Assembly (NCBI GenBank): GCA_001275005.1 | Contig: JWZX01003251.1 | Coordinates: forward strand, 1 to 53,933 | Reading direction: 5' to 3' | DNA length: 53,933 nt | Origin: Chrysochromulina tobinii | Lineage: Eukaryota | Shown: piece by piece, positions 378 to 49,300 of the stretch | Layout of the letters: each line of letters opens with the position of its first letter | Numbering within the stretch: the stretch's first letter is position 1 | Made by a program: the position numbers and the translations under genes | The notes under the pieces: generated by a model | Told to the model about the DNA's origin: nothing | Database searches by the model: none | The model's input: only the letters and a program-made list of their open reading frames with translations

Positions 378-457
378 CTAAGCATGCGCCGTGGTGTGCA
401 AGAGGGAGCTAGGGGGGGGAGACACGCAGGCAATCAGGGGCCATCAGAGGCACTCAC
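378..457 (-). other. Putative spliceosomal intron (80 nt) containing the decamer satellite
   Basis: Minus strand TCG|GTGAGTGCCTCTGATGGCCCCTGATTGCC...CATGCTTAG|GCAG. The host transcript is not identified. Confidence 0.5.
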
Positions 458-1304: not shown

Positions 1305-1680
1305 TCAGTCGTCGTCGGTGGAGCTAGATCGCCTCAGAGGGAGCTCCTGCTTGAACGCAGCGGCGTTGCGCGCGGGGGGCGTGGCTCCTCCGCGAGTGCG
1401 CCCAGAGCCAAAGCTGACGCCGCTCGCGCGCGTTGGCGCAGGTGGCGTCGTCGCGGGTGGCGTCGTCCCGAGCACGGCGCCCGCGAGCCGCAGCCAAAGG
1501 CGCAGCCAAGCGTTGGGCGCCGTCCCGGGCGCCGTCCCGGATGGTGCGAGGCCGACACCGGGTGTCCCCCCCCTGGATGGTGCTCCCCCCCCGGATGGTG
1601 CGAGGCCGACACCGGGTGTCGAGGCGAGGCGGCGTGTGGGCGGTGACGGTGGCGGCGGTGACGGCCACTGCTGCCGCTGC

Positions 1681-4166: not shown

Positions 4167-4435
4167 CCCGTGCACGTCGTGGACCGAACATGGATCCGGG
4201 TTCCGGGACCAGTGTTTGCACAACAAGAGATTCGACCCGATGTGGTAGACAGCATGTGAGAGAACGATGACACGGAGTCATATGTATGTGCGTGATCATC
4301 AAGTTTTTGTTTCAACGAAACCCTTTTGCGTGAAAACGCTGTTCAGGTTGGTAAAATGGAAGCAGCGGCCCTCCGTCGGAGGAGCAGCGCAAGCGGCACG
4401 TGCTCGTGAAGAAGAAGAAGAAGATTGGCGACGTC

Positions 4436-6152
4436 ATGCGCGAGGACTGCCTGCCCGAGCTCGTCGCAGCTCAGACCGAGATGTGCCAGATGCGTGACGA
4501 GCTTGAGGCGTATCGAAGAGGCGACCCCACCTCGAGACGCGCCGAGGCGGCTGAGAGGGAGCTGCGTGATCTCCGGGCACAGCTCGCGGCGGAGATCGCG
4601 AGCTCGGCGGAGCACTTCGAGGCGAGATCGAAGCTCAGCGACGAGATCGCCGAGCTCAGACTCCAGCTCGAAGCCGAGAAGAAGCGCTCGGCGTCGCTGC
4701 CCTCGCCTGGCGCGAGTCCAGAGGAGGAGAGCGTCAAGCAGCTCAAGAAGAGCTTGAACGAGGCGAAGGAGGAGCTCGAAGCGGCGCATCGGGCGATTCG
4801 GGCCAAGGAGGTGATTGCCTCTGAGTGCCTGCCTGAGTGCCTCGCTGAGTGCATCCCTAATTGATTTCAGGAGAGCTCGGCTCAGAAGGAAGCGGGCGTC
4901 TCATGATTGCCACGGATTGCCATTGATTGCCACTGATTGCCACTGATGAGCGCTGATTGAGCAGGAGAGCTTGGCCCAGAAGAAGGAGGGCAGCCTCCAA
5001 GCGGCCAAGGAGCATGCCGAGCTCGTCGCCCAGCACGCTGCCCTCGTGACAAAGGGCGACGAGCTCATGCGGACCGTCCGGCTGCAACGGCTCGCCGCCA
5101 AGGCTCTCGGCATGCTGTACGTCCAACGGCTGAGCTCCCTCAAGAGGCAGCTGCGGAGGATGACCGAGCGCTCGCAGGCCGTTGAGGAGATGCTCGAGGG
5201 GGCGCCCGTCGAGCGCGCGCGCCTGGTCGACGAGAATGCCAAATTGAAGCGTGACGCGGCCAGCGCCCTCGCGGCGGTTGAGCCGCTACGAAAGTCGCTC
5301 ACGCATGCAAACTCCGAGATTCGTCAGCAGGCGATGCGTCTTCAGCAGCTCCACTCAACGGCGGAGCGGCTCGAGAGCACCCGGCGTGTCAACGCTGAGC
5401 TGCGGACTACGAATGAGGAATTGCTCGAGCACGTCAGATTCCTCACGAGATCGCTCTCAGAATCGCAATCTCGCGCGGACGTGATCAAGGTCCAGCTGCT
5501 CGATGTGCAGGGCAACCACGCACGTGTCCTCGCGCGGCGGGATACGGAGCGACGGGCCCTCGAGATCCAGGTGCGCTAATGACGCCTGATGACGCCTGAT
5601 GACGCCTGATGACGCCTGATGACGCCTGATGACGCCTGATGACGCCTGATGATCCAGGTGCGCTGATGGCCTCTAAGGATCTCGGATGGCCTTGGATGGC
5701 CTCGGATGGCCTCTGATCGTCCGCATGCCCTCGAGATCGCATCGAGATCGCAGCTGGCCGAGGTGGTTTCGCGTGTGCGCGAGCATGAGAAGGCATTCCT
5801 CGGGGAGCAGCCCCTATGGCTCCTCAAGGAAATTAAAGACGCTGCCCGCGAGGCACGCGAGCCCCGGCGCGAGCGCTCACCTCGGGCCGATCTCCCGCCG
5901 CCGCTCCCGCCTTCGACGGCAACTGCCCAGACGCCATCACCGCGATGGGGCATCGCTCTGCCGACGGTGCACGCTGCTGCGATGCCTGTGCGCCCTGGCC
6001 CCACAAGGGAGGCAGCGGGGACCCCGCGCTCACGGCGGCAACTCGCGCGCGTCAAGCCGCCGCCTATCGCGGGATCCATGCCGCCGCGACAGGCGGAGGC
6101 GGCGAACGAGGCCGAACTCGGCCCCGTTGACGAGTTGCCCACCCAAGCATGA
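4436..6152 (+). CDS. Coiled-coil hypothetical protein; exons 4436-4810, 4965-5570, 5754-6152 (possible micro-exon from 4871; start may be ATG 4356 if one G is missing)
   Basis: Three heptad-rich ORFs join in frame through phase-0 GT-AG introns 4811-4964 and 5571-5753. Confidence 0.75.
4811..4964 (+). other. Decamer-satellite intron with internal acceptor (4870) and diverged copy of the downstream exon start
   Basis: GAG|GTGATTGCCTCTGAGTGCC...TTTCAG GAGAGCTCGGCTCAGAAGGAAG...(TGATTGCCAC)n...GAGCAG|GAGAGCTTGGCCCAGAAGAAGG. Confidence 0.75.
5571..5753 (+). other. Decamer-satellite intron with a duplicated donor junction
   Basis: GATCCAG|GTGCGCT occurs at 5564-5577 and 5651-5664. GACGCCTGAT x7 spans 5581-5650. 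The acceptor CGCAG|CTG at 5753 restores the frame. Confidence 0.85.
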
Positions 6153-11759: not shown

Positions 11760-12219
11760 TTCAGCAACGACGAGCGTCGTAAGGAGCGCCCGATAAGGCG
11801 CTCCGAGAACCCCGTCAGACGGACCCGAGGCGTCTGATCACACGTCAGGACCCCCCTGTTACAGTATGATGATCTCTGTTCCGTGAAAATGTCGGGCGCC
11901 GCGCGCGCCGCGCGCGGAGCGGCGGGGGCGGTAGCACAGTCCGCATGTTGGCATGAGTCCTTATGAGTCCGGGCACCGGAGCGCAAGCAGCCGATAAGGC
12001 CATAACCGGCGCCCATTTCGGTCCATTTCGGCGCTTTCGCGGCGAGACTCCAATTATTCTCCAGTTACCCAGAGCACCTCTCCGTACCGGACCCGAGGCG
12101 TCACACTTCAGCCCTACTTCAGCCCCACCCTTGCACCCACCCCTATCATGAAGATGTTCTCTATCTTCCGTGTACATGCATGTGACGAGGTCGGGAGCTC
12201 TCTGGACTCGTCTCCTGTG

Positions 12220-14515
12220 CTACGACTCGCCGGTTTTGACTAGCACGCACCCGACCTCAGCGAGCGCGCGCGCCACGTCGAGTCGCTGAGCGTCCGAGTC
12301 GCAGGGAAGCTTGGCGACGCTCACAAACTTGGGGTACGACGCGAGCACGTGCTCGAGCGCGGGCGCCGCCTCGATGGCAAAATCAATCTTATCGGGCTCA
12401 TCCCTCTCGCGGTAGATGCGCGTGTTCTGGGCGCTGTGGTACAGGGCGGCGACCTCGAGGCCGTCCGCGCCGCCTCCCTCGACAGCTAGGCGCGCGACGC
12501 GTCGGGTGGTGAGCCGAATCTTGCTCGCGAGGGTCACCTGATTGCGGCAATCAGCGGCAATCAGATGCAATCAGATGCAATCAGAGGCAATCAGGTGAGC
12601 CGAATCTTGCTCGCGAGGGTCACCTGATTGCGGCAATCAGCGGCAATCAGATGCAATCAGAGGCAATCAGGTGAGCCGAATCTTGCTCGCGAGGGTCACC
12701 TGATTGCGGCATTCAGCGGCAATCAGCGGCAATCAGCGGCAATCAGCGGCAATCAGGTGAGCCGGATCTTGCTCGCGAGAGGCACCTCCTCCGGCGAAGC
12801 CGGCAGGCGCGACGCGTCGGCGGGCGCGTGTGCGATCGGTAGGCGCTCATGAATGTAACGCTGGCAGCAGAACATATCGGCCATACCATCGAGCGGCATG
12901 TGCTCGACAAGGTCGTGCAGCATTGCACGCAGGCGCGCCTGAATCGCCGCTCGGCGCAGCGCGTGCTCCGTCACCTCCGGCGCCGCGCCTGCAAGGGGCA
13001 GCCCAAAGGCGACTCATCAGTGGCAATCAATGGCCATCAGTGGCCATCAGTGGCCATCAGTGGCCATCAGTGGCCATCATTGGCAATTACCTGCAGGGGG
13101 CAGCCCAAAGGCGACTCATCAGTGGCAATCAGTGGCCATCAGAGGCAATCAATGGCCATCAGTGGCCATCAGTGGCCATCAGTGGCCATCAGTGGCCATC
13201 AGTGGCCATTACCTGCAGGGGGCAGCCCAAAGGCGACTCTCGCACGCTCGAGCTCCGCTGGGTCGAAAGGCAGGTGGCCATTCGCGGCGTCCTCGGCGGC
13301 GGTGGCGGCGGCGTGGGCAGCAGCGGCGGCGGCGTCGCCCTCCTCGTCGTTGGCATGCAGCAGCCCAATCCGATCGAAGAGGTCAGGTGGAAGGGTTTCG
13401 CGCCAACTCGGCTGGGCCACCGTCAGGGATTCCATGGCACCGAAGACGCCGAACTCAAGGAGATCCCTCCACGTGTGCTGACGACCGAGTGAGGCGGTGA
13501 CGTGGAGCGACGGGTGCGTCTGCGCGGCCGCCTGGTGCACGAAGCCGCGTGGAAGGTACAGCAGGTCGCCGGGACGCAAGGTCACCTGCCCGATCAGGCG
13601 GCCGAGCTCGTCGGGGAGCAGATTGGGGCTCGAGAAGCGCGGCAGCGCCTCATCGGAGGTGCGGGGGGCGTAGACACGCCACTCCTTGGTGCCCTCGAGC
13701 TGCAGCACGAGCGCGTCGATGTCGTCCCAGTGCGGTGCGAACCCCTGGCTGCCCGCCGGCGTGAGGTACGCATTCGCGCCCGCCATACACCCGAAGAGCT
13801 CCTCAAGCTGAGAGAGCATCCTCCATAGAGGGTCCGACCGACGCTGGGGCCACGAGAAGCGGATGGAGCAGCCCTCGGCGTAGCGCTTCCACACCTCCTC
13901 GGGCGTCGCGATCCCTTCGCCGTTGTGCGTCGTGCGCACGCCCCCTTCATACCGCGCAGCGTCCACCTCGTCCGTCCAGCGCATCCCTCCCTCACGGATT
14001 TGGCGCTCCATCTCGGCGCGCGAGAACCAGCCGTCGTAGTAGGTGCGATCGGTGCGCGCCACGTGCAGCGGCCGTCGGCCGTAGATCTCCTTTAGGAACG
14101 TCTCCGCACTCACCGGCCCGACGAGCCACGCGAGAAACTTTAGAGCCTTGTCGGAACGGTCGGGCATCGAGGCGATCTCCGGGCCCGTCTGGCCAATGAA
14201 GGCGCGGTCGTCGGTGACTGTCTCGAGCATCTCGGAGACTTCTGGCGCGGTCTCGATACCCCAGGCACGATCGGTGGAGGACGGCTCCTTATCCTGCTGC
14301 AGCTGCTGATGTGCCTTCTTCTTCTTGCCCTTGGGAGCAGCGGCGGCGGCGGCATCGCCGGATGGTGAGGACGTCGTCGTCACGGCGGACGGTGCCGCCA
14401 CTAGCCCTGGGGGTGGCGCCTCCTCATAGTCTTCGTCCCGCGAGCGCTTGAGCTCCTTCTTTGGCTTCTTTGGCTTCGGCGCCGGGGCGGGCAAGATCGG
14501 CGATGGCTTCGGCAT
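12220..14515 (-). CDS. RIOX1: Ribosomal oxygenase 1 / NO66 (JmjC, Cupin_4); exons 14515-13213, 12988-12786, 12537-12220
   Basis: GANAYLTPAGSQGFAPHWDDIDALVLQLEGTKEWRVY, LRPGDLLYLPRGFVHQA, SLHVT and YIHERLP motifs, plus a C-terminal ALEHVLASYPKFVSVAKLP. Introns are phase 1 and phase 0 and keep the frame. Confidence 0.9.
12538..12785 (-). other. 248-nt intron made of three units (86, 76, 86 nt), each a 30-nt copy of the downstream exon plus decamer satellite ending in CAG
   Basis: GGTGAGCCGAATCTTGCTCGCGAGGGTCAC (+ strand) at 12508 (exon), 12594, 12670 and 12756 (27/30 match), separated by (GGCAATCAGC)n-type repeats. Confidence 0.88.
12989..13212 (-). other. 224-nt intron made of two units (122, 102 nt), each GTAAT plus decamer satellite plus a 27-nt copy of the upstream exon end
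   Basis: CTGCAGGGGGCAGCCCAAAGGCGACTC (+ strand) at 13213 (exon), 13091 and 12989 (1 mismatch), separated by (TGGCCATCAG)n. Confidence 0.9.
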
Positions 14516-16186: not shown

Positions 16187-19100
16187 TTAGCTCGCCTCCT
16201 CCTCTTCTCCATCCCCGCCCCCTCCTGCGCCCGTGAGCATCCCATCGGTCAGCGCCATGGCGACGTTGAGCATCGCCGTCTCGACGGTGCCAACCACCTG
16301 CTTGATCGTGCTGCGCGTGCGCCGCTCGGTGCGCGTCATGCCGTCCCATTGATTGAGGAGATTGTGGAGCTCCCTCTGTGACTTGTTGAACGTCTCCACC
16401 TGCTTGTCCAGCCGTGTGAACTCGATGGCCGACTTGCACACAAACCCCACCGCCACAGTGAGCGCAACGTACGGCGCGAGCTCTTGTCGCAGGCCGACCA
16501 TGACGGCGCTCAACGAGGAGACCACGAAGATGGCCACCTCAAGGCACTGCAACTCAAAGGAACGCCATGGCGCGGTCTTCTCAATGTACGCTAAGATCGG
16601 GCGGGCACGGAACTGCATGTAGTCGTCGATGTTCAGCGAGGTCATCATGTCGTCCTTGACGCGGACCGCGCCGCCGCCCTGTTCAACATCTGCGCCCGGT
16701 GCGGCGGCGGCCTGGCCAGTGCCGTCCTCTTCGAGATAGCGCGTCTCGAGGCGCTCGCCACGCGGGAGCGCCGTGATGAGCGCTTTCTCGCCGTGGCCCC
16801 CACCGCCCCTGCCTCCGTCCTCGACAGAGAGGGCTGTGGCCGCCACGTGCAGGCCGTCCCGTAGAACGTCGGCCGCCACGTGCAGGCCTTCCCGTAGAAC
16901 GTCGGGCGCGAGGGCCGTCTTGCTGGCCCAGCGCTTCATCTGTCTCACCAGGCGCTCCGCTCGTTTCCCGCCAGAAGCAGTTTGGCCTTCGGACGAATGG
17001 ATTTGATTGTCGAGATCTTTCGAGCCGGCGCCTTTCAATGAAGTCGCCGCCTCCTCCTCGTCCACCTGGCGCTCGATGATGATGCGAGTCCAGACGAGAC
17101 CGGAGAGGCACTCGGAGATGCGCCCGACGCTCAGGACGACCGCCCCGGCCGTGGAGACGACGACCCCAGCCACGGTACCCGTCAGTCCCGAGTACGTCCT
17201 CCGCAGATAGCGTCGCGTTGCATTGCCTGACGCAGCATTCGCGAGGTCCTTTTCTTTCCTGACGACCTCCGCCGTGAGCGCCCACTCGCGCAGCGTGACG
17301 AAGTAGATCCTCGAGGCCACGTGACGCTGCAGCGCCTCCAGCGTCTTGCGTTGAGCATCGCCGTCCACCTCGTCGACGAGAAGCCGCGAGGCGTCCAGCC
17401 CACCCGGGAGCGCGCCACCGATCCCCGTCCTGTGGGAAACCGACGCGCCCTTGCTCAACTCCGACTCTGTACTCGAGTAGATCAACTGGACGCGCTGCAC
17501 GAAGATGGTGCGAGCGAGCTTGTCCTTTACCTTGGCGGAGATGGGCGCGACCGGCTCATCGTCGCTCTTCTTCTTCTTATCGGCGGGTCCCTCCTGCGTG
17601 GCACGCATCGCCTGTGCGAGTTTCTGCCCATCGTATTCCATCGAGCGCGTGCGGAACTTGTAGATCTCGGAGACGAGCTCGTGCGAGGCCATCTTGGCGA
17701 CCGAGAACTTTTGGCGCTGGCGTAGGCGCGACGAGATCGTGCCGAGCAGCGCCACGAAGATGGGCAGTACGAGCATACCCGCGTCCAGGATCCAGATGTT
17801 TGACAAGGCCGGGATCTGCGAGATGACCGAGAGCAACGTCGTCAGCAAGCCGAATACGTAGAGGATACACTGCATCGTCCACGAGCGCAGGTTGTACACT
17901 TCGGCATTGTTGAAGAGGACCAGATGCCGGCTCCACGCGGTGGCGACCACCTTGATCTCAGCGTTGCCCAGGCCGAGTTCGGGGGGCGAGCCTGCGCTCG
18001 AGAAGCAGTTGGTGAACAAGTCGAGGAGCGACTCAGCCGAGCGCTTCATCACATCGGCCGTCTGGAACTGCTTCATCACAAAGTCGGGCGAGCGCTGCCA
18101 GATCTCGAAGAGCATGAGCGCCTCGGGGAGGCCAAAAGAACGCATCCAGTGCTCCGAGTGCTCGCCCGCCGAGAGGAGCAGGTCGACGCGCGCGAGCTCC
18201 TTGTCGAGCAAGATGATGTTGTCCAGGGCGAGCTTGCGGTTCTCCTTGGTCATGCGCTCCTTGCGCACATTCCTGGCCGCGCGCTGCTTGTACTCGGTGA
18301 TCAGGCGCATCACGAAGTCGATGTCCCACTTGGGCTTCATCAGGCGCACGGCCTTGATGATGTAGCTGAAGGCCTGCGCGATGCCGCCCGTCGATTCGAG
18401 CAGCAAAAAGGGCGAGCCCTCTTGGATGAAGTCGACGATCTTGCGGTGCTCGGCGGTGCTGCCGTGCATGAAGATGGCGCCGATCGTGCCGAGGACCGAG
18501 ATGATGGGCTTCGCCTTGAAGTCGACCGAGTCGAAGATGATGTAGTTGGTGCCGCTCGCGAAGAGCTGGGCGTCGTAGAAGATGCGCCAGATGCGCCCGA
18601 TGATCGGGCGCCGATCGGGCTGCAGGTCGACGTCGTACTGGTACTCGCGAAAGATCTCGATGACGCGCTTGCACATGCCCGGGTGGTTTGGATGCGAGTC
18701 GATGAGCTGCACCGTTTGATCGAGCTCCTGCGCCGAGGCACGCAGCCACGCGAGGCCCGCGGGCGTCACCAGCCTGCGCAGGTCCGCACGCGGCGTCGCG
18801 TAGTCAATGCTGGTCAGCTTGTACTCGGTGACCTTCTGCTCTTCAGGCGCGTCCAACTTCTTGTAAGCGAGCTCCTGGTCGATGAGAAACTTGCACTCGA
18901 TGAGCGCCTGGAGCATCGCCGCGGCGCGCTCGAGGCGTGGGCGCGAGTCCATCACGACCACCTTCGGGTTCAACCCCGTGTTGCCGCGCAGCGCGATCTC
19001 GATCATGAGCTCGGCCGTGGGCGACGAGTTCTGATTCTTGTCGATGACCAAGAAGACCTGGGAGAAGGTCGCGTAGTCGATGAGCACGGAGAAGACGTTC

Positions 19101-22100
19101 TTGAGGCGCTGGAAGGCGAGCTTGCTCGCTAGGGACGGGTCGAGCATCGCCGCGTTGTCCTTCTCGATGAGCGGATCGTACCGATCCCATGGCAACGTCG
19201 CCGCCCGCGGCAGCAGCGGCGGCTCGCCGTCATTCTCGACACCGAAACGTTCCGAGCCCGACGAGCTTGGCTTCTTGGACGACGACGGGCGCGCCGCCGG
19301 CGGCTTCTTCGGTGCGCTCATCGGCTGCGGCGCCGGACGGTACTGGCTGAACCCGGGCTTCCACAGGGGGTAACGGCTTTTCGTCTCAATCCAGAGCTCA
19401 AGGATCTCGTCCTTTGTCAGGTCCCGTGGCCAGATCCACGCCTGTGCGAGCAGCCCCGCCCCCTTGCTCGACGTGACGAGCCGGCGGATCTGCACACTCG
19501 CGTCCATCTCGGTGCTCACATACGTGGCGGGGCGCTTTGGCTCGGGCAAAAGAGCGCGTGCCGGCTGTGGCGCCCCCTTAGTGTCGATCGAATGGTACCC
19601 GATCCAGAACTGCGATTCTCGGCCGTCGTTGGTGACCACAAGCAGGCACCAGTTGTCGCCGGCGAGGCGTGGGTCGAAGTCAGTCGCGCAGAAGACGTTG
19701 TCGACGAGTGCGCCGAGTTGGTTGTTGCGCACGAGCGCGGGCATGTTGCGAGTCTCTCCGAAGAAAAGGAGTTGGTCCGAGAGAGATTCAATCGGCCGCC
19801 ATTTGATCCAGTATGCGAACGTGTAGCAGAGCGTGTCCTTAGTGGGCATGTACGCGAGCGCAGTCGACATGAGCCGCATCGTCGTCCCGCCATTGCCGGC
19901 AGCGTGCATCCCCGCATCATTCCCTGATGAGAGCGTCGTCGGTTGCTGATTCAAGTGAGAGGCGACGGGGGCGGCATCGGCTCTTTGTTTGCTCGCTTTC
20001 TCACTTGTATCGGCCGAGTCGGCAGGCACATTTACCGGCCTGGGCGCGCGTACCCCCGCCGTCGTTCCCACGACGTCGCGCAACGCCAAGCGGCTCCACC
20101 GGTTCGACTTGGCGTTGATCGGCTTGGCGGGATCCTCGCCTGCAGCTGCCTCGGCCGCCTCTGGAACCGCCATAGAGTCAAGCGACGCCTTGCGGCTCCG
20201 GCTCGGCTCGGCTTGATCCTCGCCTGCAACTGCATATCTGTAAAGGGCGGGGGTGCTCATGAGACTTGCCTCGACCGCCTCCGGGACCGGAATCGACGGT
20301 GCCGTGGGTTGCAGTGGCCGCGCTCCTGTTGGCTGCGGTTGACTGCCGGATTCCATATCGGGCGTCTTCGAACATGAGGAGGAGGCGTTCGACCCCTCGC
20401 GTGATGCGTTCGCGTTCGGCGATGGCGTGCGACGGCTCCTCGCGTTCGGCGGCTCATCGGGTGGGCTGGGCGGCGGCGTGGGCTCACTCCCACTTGTTGA
20501 TGTGGGCCATCCAGGCACGACTGGTACCGGGCCACGTCCCGCCACCACGTCCCGCCAGCCGGGCTCGAAGAGCGACGGCGGCTCACGCACGCCCGACTGG
20601 CTGAGCGGGTTGTCCTCTGCCATGCTCGCCATGCTCGGCTCTATCGACTCGCCATCTTCGTAGGGTGATGTCCACTGCGTCTTGGTACTGCCGTCCTCCG
20701 TGCAGTAGTAGTAAGTTCGCCCATCCGGGGCAGTCGCCTCAGACCATTGCGGAGAGAGCCCGTACTTGCTGCGAGACGATGAGGATGCCGTGGCACGCAA
20801 CGCACACCCAGCAGATCCACCGCGTGTAGAGCAAGCCCCGACTCCAGCGCCAGCATCATTAGTTGTGTCGTCCTCTCGAGGGCTCGGGAGCGTGCTTTCC
20901 ATCTTGCTCCCCTTTTTCCGAATCCCGAGACTCTCGGGCGGTCGGATGGCGATGCGCAACATGACGACGCCCACTGGCACCTCCACTCTGGAGATGTCCT
21001 CCTCCTCCTCCTCCTCCTTAGTGTCCTCGAGCTCCTCGTCAATGGGCCCCACTTTACTCAGGCTCATACGTCTCAGACTGGCCCAGCCACTGCCAGTGGC
21101 ACTGGGTGAGAGGCTCACGACGCTCCCGACGCTCGAGCGTGCGAGCTGTGGAGGAGCCTTGTGGGGTGGAGGCAGCGCCTTGGGCGCAGGTGAGCCCTTG
21201 GGCGCCATCTCCTCAAAGCCCATCAAGTCAAATGCCATGTCCATCTCGCACGTGCCGTTATTGTTGGGCTTGCCGTCGCGCAGCAACTCCTTGAGGCTGA
21301 TCTTGGTGATGCCGATGAACCCTTTGAGTTGGGCCGTGCCCTTACGGTCCGTGATGTACCACTTGCGTCCTTGCTTGTTGGCCACGATCAGCTTGATGGT
21401 CACGTCGGAGCTCGATGGGTCGACATCTTCGAGGATCTGCGTGAGCTCGAGAGTCTCGGCCTCGCTGTTTTCGGTGCGGTACCGGCGCTCGATTTGATCG
21501 TGAGCACGCCCCTTGAAAGTGCTGAAGCCCTTCCTGAGCGGGTACGGCTCCGAAAGGTGCTCGGGAGGGTTGTCGCCAGGGATCATGCTCTCGACGAGAA
21601 CGAGCGCATCGCCGGCTGCAAACTCGGGGCCCATGGCGGCGAGGATCTTCAAGCCTATCTCGTTGAGGCGCGAGCTCTTAATCTCAAGGCGCACCTCACC
21701 TCGCTCGAGCTCCCGCTCCTTTTCGTTCTCGGCGCGCCGAATGTCGTGGATCAGCATCAGGTTCGTCATTCGGAGCCAGCTGCGCAGATTCTTTGGGCGT
21801 GTCGTCTTCACGAGATGCTTCGAACGCGCCTGGAGCATCGACTGCATCGTCGGGTTGTTTTCCTTGAGCGTGATCCATTGGTCCTTCATACCCTGGTACC
21901 ACTCATCGTAGCTCTGCCGCATGTTGCCCACGTATTGCGTCTGCTGCGGCAGCACGCCCCCCGGCGTGACCGCCTGCTTCACGTTCAGGTCCCAGTAAAA
22001 CACACCGTCGTCGTCCTTGATGGCCACCTGCTTGCCCAGGGGCTGATGCGTGACGGCGTCCATGATCCACTCGTTGTTGACGCGGTCCATCTTACCGATG

Positions 22101-22651
22101 AGCTCGGCGTCGTCCTGAGCTTGCAGCGACGCGTCGATGAACAGCGTGTGCGGTGGCTTGAATGTGAACTCAGGCATCTGGTAATGTGGGCCAACAAAGA
22201 ACGCGGGGTAGCGCCACGCGTTGACCGCTGCCATCCAGCCCTCCACAGGGTCGCGCTGCCCATCAAAGTAATCATCGTTGAAACGCGGACGCGACTGGAG
22301 AAAGTCTTTTCGCTGCTCGCGCAAGCCTTTGTCCTGAATGAGGTGCATCGGATGCTGCGAACCGCCGTGCACGGTGAGAGACATGGCCGGTATCTCCAGC
22401 TCCCACACCTTGATCGCATTGAGCATCCACAAGCTGTTCTGTCCCTTGGGATTCGTTTCATGATTCGGGTCCGTCTCTGGCACCCAGTACATTGGGTGAG
22501 GCATGTCCTTGATGGCCTCGGTTGGAGGATTCTCGTAGTCGAGGGCATTTGCACGGAGCTCTGCAATGAGCTGCGCCTTGAGCGACTTGAAGCGCTTGGT
22601 GTTCTGCGACTCGAACGAGGACTGGAACTCTTCGACCTCTTCGACCGACAT
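16187..22651 (-). CDS. 2154-aa multidomain protein: split TRPM-type SLOG, C2-like, WW, LamG-like and two SLATT 2-TM domains
   Basis: Uninterrupted ORF. SLOG motifs WELEIPAMSLTVHGGS and IGAIFMHGS...SPFLLLESTGGIA; WW motif WSEATAPDGRTYYY...TQWTSP; SLATT motifs ASHELVSEIYKFRTRSMEY and LNIDDYMQFRARP. Confidence 0.85.
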   Translation of the reverse strand: MSVEEVEEFQSSFESQNTKRFKSLKAQLIAELRANALDYENPPTEAIKDMPHPMYWVPETDPNHETNPKGQNSLWMLNAIKVWELEIPAMSLTVHGGSQHPMHLIQDKGLREQRKDFLQSRPRFNDDYFDGQRDPVEGWMAAVNAWRYPAFFVGPHYQMPEFTFKPPHTLFIDASLQAQDDAELIGKMDRVNNEWIMDAVTHQPLGKQVAIKDDDGVFYWDLNVKQAVTPGGVLPQQTQYVGNMRQSYDEWYQGMKDQWITLKENNPTMQSMLQARSKHLVKTTRPKNLRSWLRMTNLMLIHDIRRAENEKERELERGEVRLEIKSSRLNEIGLKILAAMGPEFAAGDALVLVESMIPGDNPPEHLSEPYPLRKGFSTFKGRAHDQIERRYRTENSEAETLELTQILEDVDPSSSDVTIKLIVANKQGRKWYITDRKGTAQLKGFIGITKISLKELLRDGKPNNNGTCEMDMAFDLMGFEEMAPKGSPAPKALPPPHKAPPQLARSSVGSVVSLSPSATGSGWASLRRMSLSKVGPIDEELEDTKEEEEEEDISRVEVPVGVVMLRIAIRPPESLGIRKKGSKMESTLPSPREDDTTNDAGAGVGACSTRGGSAGCALRATASSSSRSKYGLSPQWSEATAPDGRTYYYCTEDGSTKTQWTSPYEDGESIEPSMASMAEDNPLSQSGVREPPSLFEPGWRDVVAGRGPVPVVPGWPTSTSGSEPTPPPSPPDEPPNARSRRTPSPNANASREGSNASSSCSKTPDMESGSQPQPTGARPLQPTAPSIPVPEAVEASLMSTPALYRYAVAGEDQAEPSRSRKASLDSMAVPEAAEAAAGEDPAKPINAKSNRWSRLALRDVVGTTAGVRAPRPVNVPADSADTSEKASKQRADAAPVASHLNQQPTTLSSGNDAGMHAAGNGGTTMRLMSTALAYMPTKDTLCYTFAYWIKWRPIESLSDQLLFFGETRNMPALVRNNQLGALVDNVFCATDFDPRLAGDNWCLLVVTNDGRESQFWIGYHSIDTKGAPQPARALLPEPKRPATYVSTEMDASVQIRRLVTSSKGAGLLAQAWIWPRDLTKDEILELWIETKSRYPLWKPGFSQYRPAPQPMSAPKKPPAARPSSSKKPSSSGSERFGVENDGEPPLLPRAATLPWDRYDPLIEKDNAAMLDPSLASKLAFQRLKNVFSVLIDYATFSQVFLVIDKNQNSSPTAELMIEIALRGNTGLNPKVVVMDSRPRLERAAAMLQALIECKFLIDQELAYKKLDAPEEQKVTEYKLTSIDYATPRADLRRLVTPAGLAWLRASAQELDQTVQLIDSHPNHPGMCKRVIEIFREYQYDVDLQPDRRPIIGRIWRIFYDAQLFASGTNYIIFDSVDFKAKPIISVLGTIGAIFMHGSTAEHRKIVDFIQEGSPFLLLESTGGIAQAFSYIIKAVRLMKPKWDIDFVMRLITEYKQRAARNVRKERMTKENRKLALDNIILLDKELARVDLLLSAGEHSEHWMRSFGLPEALMLFEIWQRSPDFVMKQFQTADVMKRSAESLLDLFTNCFSSAGSPPELGLGNAEIKVVATAWSRHLVLFNNAEVYNLRSWTMQCILYVFGLLTTLLSVISQIPALSNIWILDAGMLVLPIFVALLGTISSRLRQRQKFSVAKMASHELVSEIYKFRTRSMEYDGQKLAQAMRATQEGPADKKKKSDDEPVAPISAKVKDKLARTIFVQRVQLIYSSTESELSKGASVSHRTGIGGALPGGLDASRLLVDEVDGDAQRKTLEALQRHVASRIYFVTLREWALTAEVVRKEKDLANAASGNATRRYLRRTYSGLTGTVAGVVVSTAGAVVLSVGRISECLSGLVWTRIIIERQVDEEEAATSLKGAGSKDLDNQIHSSEGQTASGGKRAERLVRQMKRWASKTALAPDVLREGLHVAADVLRDGLHVAATALSVEDGGRGGGGHGEKALITALPRGERLETRYLEEDGTGQAAAAPGADVEQGGGAVRVKDDMMTSLNIDDYMQFRARPILAYIEKTAPWRSFELQCLEVAIFVVSSLSAVMVGLRQELAPYVALTVAVGFVCKSAIEFTRLDKQVETFNKSQRELHNLLNQWDGMTRTERRTRSTIKQVVGTVETAMLNVAMALTDGMLTGAGGGGDGEEEEAS

Positions 22652-46300: not shown

Positions 46301-49300
46301 CGAGGAGGCGGGCCCCATGCTCAAGCGCCCCTCGTCGATCATGTGGATTCAGTGGATGGGTGCCGTAGGGCGCAAGGTCCGAGGCACTAAGAAGCTCGAG
46401 GATAATGAAACCGCGGCTGGACGGCTCCAACAAGCGGCCGCCGGCGCGGCGGGCACGACGGCGCCCGCCACGGCGAGGAAGGCGTCCAAGTCGATCGACC
46501 TCAACAAGGACGGCATGGTGGACTCGATGGAGCGTGGGCACGCGCTCGACGCCGTCGTGGGCGTCGACGTGTCGGAGGGCTCGACGGACATTTTGCCGTT
46601 GCACCTGCTCGATGTGAGCGACGTCGAGTACATGGCGATGCTCTACGAGCTGCTCAGCCGGAAGCCTGAGCCGATCAAGTTTTATCTCGAGGAGCTCGTG
46701 TTCCCCGACACGACGGCGCATCAGCCGATGAAGCTCTCCGCCAACGGCCAGGATGTGGGCGGCGCGATGCTCTTCTCGCGACGCATCGGCTTCTCGGGAA
46801 CCCCTTCGGGGCTGCTGCCACTCGAGATGGGCGACTGCGTCTACTCGATGGGAGACGACGCCAAGATGCTCAAAACGCTCACCGACCCGCTCATCGTCTC
46901 GCAGCAGTTCATGCCGGCCGCGTGGGACGTGCCGACGCTCCTCGAGGCCGTGGTCGCGCATCAGCCGCCCGCGCATGCCCTCATCGACACGGGCGCGCTC
47001 GTGACCGGCATGTCGAACCTGGATGTGGCCCACTTCTTGCTCAAACGACTGCCCGCGGACAAGTACGATGGCGTCGTGTACCTCGAGCCGGGCGGGCACA
47101 AGAAGATCCTGCTGCGCGGCACCGCGGGCGCCTCCTCGACGATGGACATGGAGCGGTGCGGACTTCCCAAGGAGCGCCGCTTTTCGTTCTTTGACCAGGT
47201 GCACACGACGGGCATGGACATTCCCCAGGGCGCGAGTGCGTGCGCCATCCTGACGCTCGGGAAGGACATGGTGTGGCGTGACTACGCCCAGGGCGCGTAC
47301 CGCATGCGCGGCATCGGCAAAGGGCAGACGATCCTCCTCTTCGTCATCCCTGAGGTGCAGCGGCTCATGGCGTCCGAGACGGCCCTGGGCGCAGGCACCA
47401 CGCGCGACGTGCGTGCGGCGCAGATCGCGGCTCTCCCGGAGCAAGAGCGACGTCGACAGGAGCTCGAAGCTGTGGCGAGCTGGCTCGTCATCAACTCGAT
47501 GAAGAGTGAGCGCGTGCAGTTCGAGCTCTGGTGCCTGCACTGCTCCCAGAATGTGTGGCGCAAGAAGGCAAAGAATGGTCTCGTCGCGGGCCACGCCAAC
47601 TTTTCGGATGCGCGCGAGGGCAAGGGCGCGTCGGCTTTGGAGCGGCGCATGCTCGAAGTCTTCCGGGAGGGTGTCGAGCGGGACATTAGCAACTCGGTGC
47701 CTGTGGCCACGGACACGCGCCAGACGATCGCTTCGCTCGCGCAGCAATACGCCGAGCTGTGCGACGAGATGCACGAGATCAAGGCCATTGAGTCTGTGCA
47801 GGCGATGCTCGCCGGGTACGCGCCCGAGCTTGACGTCCCTACCGAGTCGCACACCGAGAAGGCCAACGAAGCCGCCGCCTTCGACCAAGAGCAGGAGCAA
47901 GAGCAAGAGCAAGGTACGATCGGCTCCTTGCCGCCTTCTCTGTTCCTGCCTTATTTCTCTGTGCTCGCCTTCTCTGTGCTCGCCTGCTCTGTGCTCGCCT
48001 GTTCTGTGCCTGCCTGCTCTGTGCTCGCCTGCTCTGCTATGCCTGCTCTGCGCTGCCTGCTCTTCGAGCGCACCCTGCACCACGGATGATGAGCAATGTC
48101 CTCCAAGATCGCTACGGCCAATCGGATGCTGCCCCCCTCGGGCGGCCGACGAAGAAGGGCGTGTGCTCTGACGAACCTGACGAACCTGACGAGAAGAAGG
48201 GCGTTTGCTCTGACGGCTGGCCGCCCGTCTTCTTGTCACCCTTGCTCTTGACGCACCCCCCTGAGCCCACCTTCCCGCCTGTGCCTCCCGCCACGCAGAG
48301 CAAGAGAAGGAGCAGCAGCAGGAGCAGCAGAAGGAGCAGGAGCAGGAACAGGAGCAGGAGGACGAGGAGTATAAGAAGGAGAAGTACACGCGCGAGGAGG
48401 AGTTTGGCAAGGTGTGGGAGCTCGCGGCGCTGGCCCAGAACCCGCCCAAGCAGGACGTGCTCGGCTTCTTCCAGGTGTCCGAGTTCTCGGTGCACCGCTC
48501 GTTCCTCAACCAAAAGGGGCCGCTGCGCTGGCCCAATTACCTGCAGTTCTCGTCCGACCACACGCACCCACGCTGGCGCTTCCAAGGGCACCATCGGCTC
48601 AAGAACATAATCGCCGTCATGGAGTGGGCGCCCGACGTGGCTGCGGCTGCGAAGAGTAGCTCAACCTACACTGGCGGCGCCGCCGGAGGCGGCGCGGCGA
48701 TGGCGGCGCTCACCGACGGGCAACGCCAGCGGCTCTCCCGCGTCTTCCAGATGTATGTGCCGAGTGGCTGAAGGACGTTTTGAGTGCCACTGAGTGAGCT
48801 TCTGAGTGCCTCCGATGGCCTCCCTCGTCAGGTACGATGCCGAGGGCCGAGGCGCGCTCGGCGAGCAGCGGCTGCGCACCATCCTGTCCGACATGGGTCT
48901 TGAGCCCGAGACGGTCGCGGCCGAGAAGCTCGCAATCGAGGCGCTCTTTAGCAGCCTGCGCGCCTCAGGCGCCATGAACTGCGACCCGAGCAACGGCGAG
49001 CTCCGTGTGCCCAGCATGGAGTTCCTGCGCGTCATGCAGGCGCAGGAGTTCCTCGTGGGCGAGATGGGCCGGTACTGGGTCGCCCTCTCGCTCCGTGAGG
49101 CGGAGACGCTGCGCGGTGCGCTCCACGCGGCCATGGACGGCGAGACGGCGCTCGTGCCCAATAGCAAGGTGGCCGTTGGGCTGCGCATCGGCGACCTGCT
49201 GCTCGATGCCGTGGGCGGCGCAAAGGGCGACACGGACGGGCGACCCGACGACTACCACCAACCGCCGCGCCTGCAGCTGCAGAGCGCCGTGCAGGCGTTC

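Follow-up and report, generated by a model that had tools for sequence, protein, structure and literature searches.

NO66 Gene and its Introns

The minus-strand gene at 14515-12220 of the window, which is the 53,933-nt stretch of DNA analyzed here, encodes NO66/RIOX1, a protein of 607 aa in three exons. The gene was identified through the Pfam domains JmjC_2 (E 1e-31) and RIOX1_C_WH (E 7e-18). Its nearest named relatives are found in Phaeocystis cordata and Emiliania huxleyi and, to judge by these, the host is a haptophyte. The DNA of the window is present in mixed-culture and freshwater sequencing runs. A metagenome scan, with 189 candidate stretches, gave seven loci (L001-L007) for comparison. 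The features of the gene are collected in Table 1, where D is the 30-nt opening of exon 3 and D' is its upstream copy.

Table 1. Features of the NO66/RIOX1 gene and of its second intron.
Feature	Position	Strand	Evidence
Exon 1, coding part, JmjC domain	13213..14515	-	Pfam JmjC_2, homologues, RNA contigs
Intron 1, 224 nt, mirrored two-unit stack (122 + 102 nt)	12989..13212	-	Sequence; spliced out in RNA run X12; both units also in L001
Exon 2	12786..12988	-	RNA contigs X12, X14; protein alignment
Intron 2, 248 nt in the window's assembly, 476 nt in L001	12538..12785	-	RNA joint with skip of 248 in X13; L001
D', decayed copy of exon-3 start (27/30), giving the outer donor GAG/GTGCCT	12756..12785	-	Sequence, homologues
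Unit-1 satellite, five 10-mers of TGATTGCCGC type, ending in the inverted piece AATCAG that gives the acceptor	12700..12755	-	Sequence
76-nt unit, perfect D + four 10-mers + AATCAG; one copy in the window, four in L001	12624..12699	-	L001, DNA depth; circular 106-nt contig in X4, X14
Perfect 12-nt inverted repeat around each internal D (12631-12620 vs 12598-12587)	12587..12631	.	Sequence
Last unit, 86 nt, D + five 10-mers + AATCAG; one 10-mer more than the 76-nt unit	12538..12623	-	Sequence; X16 contig 12184-12585 continues from exon 3 into the last unit
Exon 3, coding part up to stop, opening with the true D; RIOX1 C-terminal winged helix	12220..12537	-	Domain search, protein alignment, RNA contig X13

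Structure of Intron 2

Intron 2 reads D', satellite, and AATCAG, then twice D, satellite, and AATCAG, after which exon 3 opens with D. Each unit runs from GT to AG and consists of a 32-nt copy of exon sequence (AG plus 30 nt) and a 10-nt satellite. The 2013 Emiliania genome paper reportedly describes 10-11-bp tandem repeats in introns. An earlier note on this DNA had described the donor as the start of a 27/30 exon copy, followed by two perfect copies after internal acceptors, in units of 86, 76, and 86 nt that differ in satellite content. All of this was confirmed in the window. The donor copy at 12785-12756 matches the exon-3 start, and the perfect copies at 12699-12670 and 12623-12594 follow the CAGs that end at 12700 and 12624. 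At the border of the intron, the repeat with its preceding AG is 32 nt long with 3 mismatches. This match is far above chance; at least 25 matched border letters were found in 8 of 20,000 random GT..AG pairs in the window, and the arrays themselves are possibly among these 8.

Homologues read mostly V-[T/Q/E]-L at the border of intron 2, and none of the 21 aligned has a P there. Thus, D is the exon and D' is the decayed copy. The opposite assignment, with D' as the exon, was ruled out by the homologues and by the position of the RNA joint in run X13. D finishes in TCAC(C) at either end, and from there the same satellite continues, on opposite strands at the two ends. The satellite of unit 1 differs from those of units 2 and 3, and the history is therefore not one simple recent duplication. 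A satellite search gave 0 matches in viral contigs and 7 in prokaryotic genomes, all of which were read as unrelated bacterial repeats. In the DNA runs, 366 contigs of X8 and 401 of X4 match a 421-nt stretch, nearly all on its satellite part.

At the two internal joints (CAG/GTGACC at 12700/12699 and 12624/12623), an acceptor is directly followed by a donor, with an exon of zero length between them. Use of an internal acceptor does leave a GAG/GTGACC donor in the sequence, as had been proposed, and the predicted reading of ...VTLASKIRLT followed at once by TGA was also found. All internal-acceptor products, as well as the retained intron, stop at 512 aa rather than 607, and most of the C-terminal winged helix is lost. 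Because units 2 and 3 share identical acceptors and an identical 30 nt downstream, nothing local marks the last acceptor.

Number of Units

The number of units differs between assemblies. L001 is a second assembly of the same DNA, and its intron 2 has six (86 + 4 x 76 + 86 = 476 nt). Its flanks show 0 differences from the window, both for 8,467 nt on the downstream side and for about 6 kb on the upstream side. Depth was taken from X4 and X8, two of the 11 DNA runs with the sequence, with contig depth as a rough measure. Contigs of the 76-nt unit without mismatch have depths of 159, 144.9, and 125.3, and the flanks have depths of 48.8/42.5 and 34.3/37.2. The unit-to-flank ratios are 3.48, 4.05, and 3.50. 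A word multiplicity of about 2.0 would be expected for three units, 3.0 for four, 4.0 for five, and 5.0 for six, and a half-and-half mix of the two assemblies would give 3.5. The depth points to about 4.5-5 units on average, a value that satellite words common to other loci could inflate.

The array is thus real and probably longer than in the window's assembly, while three against six units may reflect alleles or guesses of the assembler. The earlier note had argued that the units are not duplicated reads and this is borne out, as the loop from D through satellite to D lies in real DNA at 3.5-4 times the flank depth. Its count of three units was not confirmed, given the six in L001 and a depth above that expected for three. 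Its exon-intron model and its end product stand, the latter through the RNA joint. Its fixed three-unit design does not, and the array is better described as a variable or collapsed whole-intron tandem repeat.

Farther from NO66, beyond about 18,900, L001 and the window diverge. There are 91 differences in 18,500-19,913, and identity is 86% at 20,933-22,647. The sequences suggest a second haplotype or a paralogous stretch in this region.

RNA Evidence

Five of the six RNA runs with the sequence were compared (all but X17), through contigs built on 31-letter words. There is no coverage at 12484 in X12 and none on exon 3 in X14 and X15, and these gaps carry no weight in what follows. In X13, a polyA run, one contig (depth 48) lacks exactly 248 nt, from GT to AG, and joins 12786 to 12537, one of the three junctions that the earlier note had proposed to look for. 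The joint carries the letters of D and not those of D'. This run comes from a strain that is ~1% different (14 differing letters over a piece of 1,308 nt), and its own array could not be reconstructed. The full join was found in one of the five runs. It is absent from the DNA runs X4 and X8, and is therefore a splice and not an allele. An allele with D in place of D' was considered as the source of the junction and was not seen in these two DNA runs. Some mature RNA, at least, has lost the whole array.

X12 and X14 are close to the window and contain exon-2 pieces with three other letters over D'. These are read as exon 2 spliced to a copy of D. The acceptor is indistinguishable in both, because AG and D together, at 32 nt, exceed the 31-letter words from which the contigs were made. 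In X12, intron 1 is spliced (skip of 224) in a contig of depth 9.3. At intron 2 of the same run, the unspliced piece from exon 2 to D' (depth 6.9) and the end of unit 1 (8.2) both exceed the spliced junction (3.5), and the depth of the 76-nt loop is 9.76. The loop is only 1.2-1.4 times as deep as the unit-1 pieces, against about 3.4 times in DNA. A rough binomial p for this deficit is 0.004-0.09, depending on assumptions, or 0.14-0.36 if the sample has three units. The deficit hints weakly that the internal units are removed earlier than the unit whose donor has decayed, and the hint vanishes with three units. In X14 and X15, the loop is present at a depth of 4.5-4.6 with no unit-1 piece among the matches listed, which fits unspliced RNA or DNA.

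Other Introns of Similar Build

Intron 1 of the same gene is built in a comparable way. In each of its units, a 10-nt satellite leads into 27 nt copied from the end of exon 1. The internal joint, CAG/GTAATT, is at 13091/13090 and the border repeat is 28 nt. The exon duplications of introns 1 and 2 (28 and 32 nt) are on opposite sides, and the two introns have the satellite type alone in common.

Long border repeats are also present in the related loci. To judge from homology, L005 has a 154-nt intron of TTAGGG and then CCCTAA repeats with a 21-nt exon duplication, which is single-copy and intronless in L002. In L002, homology likewise points to a GC-AG intron of 91 nt, and its 20-nt duplication is a single copy in L005. 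Border repeats of at least 20 nt were found in 4 of the 14 scored intron candidates and shorter ones in the other 10, which count against the origin preferred below. The other introns inferred are 60-253 nt long, and the units of intron 2 are of matching size.

Several further observations concern the same genes and the rest of the window. The telomere-repeat intron of L005 is at about 222-375, and the NO66 orthologues of L004 and L006 also have such an intron, while the site is empty in L002 and L003. A second telomere-filled intron ends just upstream of the first. L002 contains a 253-nt intron (about 4207-4459) in which the first part is made of tandem donor-like GTGAG units with telomere-like spacers. 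This resembles the donor minisatellite of the human F7 gene, which is discussed below. In the window, an intron at 5571-5753 (+) has two different 10-nt satellites. Its donor region is duplicated at about 5651-5664, and close to its acceptor lie decayed copies of the end of the upstream exon. Short introns at 427-456 (-) and 48781-48830 (+) belong to the same TGA-led 10-nt satellite family, with no long border repeat in the scan. At 1536-1620 (+), there is a perfect 31-nt direct repeat, 54 nt apart and centered on AG/GC, with a filler of local repeats. This is a candidate for a young GC-AG intron or for an in-frame duplication.

An older two-part intron was seen at 4811-4964 (+). Its first satellite stretch closes with CAG and is followed at 4871-4895 by a diverged copy of the start of the downstream exon, and then come more satellite and a second CAG. 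The frame is kept by a skip to 4965 and would also be kept by a micro-exon of 21 nt with a GC donor, and an end at 4871 leads to a stop. The CAG/GA joint of this stack cannot re-splice, and distal choice or a micro-exon must therefore work in this alga.

Origin of the Array

The position of intron 2 is covered by five related loci from three distinct genomes (L002, L003, L005, L006, and L007), and none of the five has an intron there. L005 and L006 have a different intron five codons upstream. These empty-site orthologues are distant, at 49-58% identity, and no intronless allele of the same species was found. In these distant relatives, the empty site has a single copy of the sequence that is repeated at the intron borders and gives AG/GT, as expected of intron gain by duplication or break repair. 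Recursive sites are typically, although not by strict definition, conserved across species, and the absence of the intron from all five loci does not follow that pattern.

The best reading is that intron 2 is a young intron that was born with a long exon duplication and was then amplified as a whole-intron minisatellite. Very probably, a repair-type insertion would have placed the satellite filler between two copies of AG plus 30 nt. Such an insert would be removed exactly, because the GT of the first copy and the AG before the second flank the filler. The long direct repeat would then let the whole intron duplicate by slippage or unequal exchange, and for a duplication of this kind we have strong confidence. 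Any GT..AG intron gains internal AG/GT joints once it is copied in tandem, so these would be a by-product and not an evolved signal. The way in which the ends of D run head to head into satellite suggests that both ends of a staggered break may have been extended with repeat. L005 shows the same head-to-head layout.

Published accounts exist of intron gain by duplication and by repair, of introners, of minisatellites at splice sites, and of a 336-nt yeast intron that is spliced recursively. As in duplication- and repair-type gain, both splice sites here come from a duplicated AG/GT stretch of exon, excision is precise, and the filler between the repeats is new. The NO66 build differs in the length of the repeat (28-32 nt), in the use of a genome-wide 10-nt satellite as filler, and in the head-to-tail multiplication of the finished intron. 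Introners or introner-like elements are reported with duplications of 3-9 bp, and they are also reported in a Chrysochromulina sp., where the duplication is 4 bp (PMC9860276; bioRxiv 10.1101/2020.10.14.339549). Introners likewise recruit splice sites from a target-site duplication. However, the duplications here are 28-32 nt long, and the NO66 introns share a type of satellite and not an element with fixed ends. They have neither the short fixed target duplication of 3-9 bp nor terminal inverted repeats.

A 37-bp VNTR in intron 7 of human F7 is a minisatellite that spans an exon-intron border and repeats the splice site (PMC1557585). It repeats donors only, of which the first is used, whereas the NO66 unit has both a donor and an acceptor and the last acceptor must be reached. 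The change from three to six units between assemblies, whether from alleles or assembler choice, has to be read with this comparison. Interstitial telomeric repeats at breaks are also inserted with a target duplication in a minority of cases (PMC2246262). The filler of L005 is TTAGGG and that of the window is not. Fungal stwintrons (PMC6616335) are short complex introns that are also removed in several steps. The NO66 units abut and none of them interrupts a donor, branch point, or acceptor, so they are not stwintrons. No description of tandemly amplified, satellite-filled introns flanked by 20-32-nt duplications was found in the literature as available, including passages of haptophyte genome papers (PMC12480563, PMC13518057, PMC4580454, bioRxiv 2024.05.26.595999), whose supplements may bear on this.

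Removal of the Array

Intron 2 could be removed by repeated short excisions in any order. Since every joint is an acceptor plus a donor, any donor-acceptor pair would leave a shorter array in register and the same mRNA would be reached. Molecules that halt early would carry the stop right after D and would be decayed. The size of the units, the identical acceptors, and the loop deficit in X12 support such stepwise removal, to which we give a chance slightly short of even. As a general rule, it has the CAG/GA joint of the 4811-4964 stack against it. No intermediate, either exon 2 with D and satellite or an array cut short, was seen in the contigs, whose 31-letter words are too short to reveal one. 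There is a short-intron precedent in SPNCRNA.445 of S. pombe, in which recursive splicing of a 336-nt intron is described (bioRxiv 10.1101/226894), and there is a survey of recursive splicing for human (PMC10156609). The NO66 joints resemble published sites in that an internal acceptor is directly followed by a donor. They differ in the evidence, which for the published sites comes from lariats or spliceosome profiling and for those of NO66 from sequence, and in conservation, which holds for the yeast site. They also differ in number and spacing, with up to five candidate sites that come from a young repeat and segments of 76-86 nt.

It is rather unlikely that the same DNA history is followed by one-step removal from the outer donor to the last acceptor, with the internal AG/GT joints as silent as the donors of human F7. 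The distal product is the only one seen in the RNA contigs, and re-splicing is not possible at the GA joint of the 4811-4964 stack. The F7 pseudo-sites are normally silent (PMC1557585), and human introns of less than 1,000 nt favor lariats of the conventional kind (PMC10156609). However, the last acceptor has no distinguishing feature in its sequence or predicted structure, and all acceptors are equally paired in full-context folds. Masking of the internal acceptors by a hairpin was considered in this connection and rejected; the isolated 54-nt fold is more stable at the internal site (-23.1 vs -13.1 kcal/mol), and in full context the sites are equally paired. In addition, the F7 rule favors the first site, but here the last of up to six would have to win, and the depths of X12 weakly hint otherwise. 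It is still less probable that acceptor choice is loose and final, that nonsense-mediated decay clears the internal-acceptor and retained transcripts, and that the array is mildly harmful and drifting. The early stop in all of these products would fit this, as would the excess in X12 of unspliced exon 2-D' over the spliced junction in a run where intron 1 is spliced. Against it, the fully spliced contig of the polyA run X13 (48) is deeper than its intron pieces (8-16). The depths are also low and flat per contig, in RNA libraries that have no silent-stretch control for DNA.

That the stack is an assembly artifact, in which single-unit alleles were chained through their common D, is very improbable. 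The assemblies do disagree, and an array of identical 76-nt units exceeds the length of short reads. In X4 and X8, however, D' is the sole continuation of exon 2 and has flank depth, as does exon 3, while the loop is 3.5-4 times deeper. The extra units therefore exist in the DNA, and the count alone is unreliable. The explanation preferred here combines a new-intron origin, amplification of the repeat, and probable multi-step removal. Taken as a whole, we regard it as evenly balanced between right and wrong.

Significance for Haptophyte Introns

A wider generalization is unlikely to hold in full, but can be stated. Haptophytes may gain introns when they fill a staggered break with a simple repeat, of telomeric type in certain lineages and here a 10-nt satellite placed head to head on both ends, and would be left with exon duplications of 20-32 nt. 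The intron would then become a minisatellite. The spliceosome would strip its 76-86-nt units singly, so that recursive splicing would come for free and expansion would be nearly neutral. If splicing is one-step, intron 2 would be a curious but ordinary intronic minisatellite. Intron 2 provides a natural experiment, in which as many as six acceptors of identical sequence and five identical donors lie within 500 nt and only one end product is in frame. From it one could learn how a spliceosome for short introns makes its choice, and whether plain duplication can give rise to recursive sites. The gene also holds a legible scar of intron birth twice, and this scar is much longer than the duplications reported for introners.
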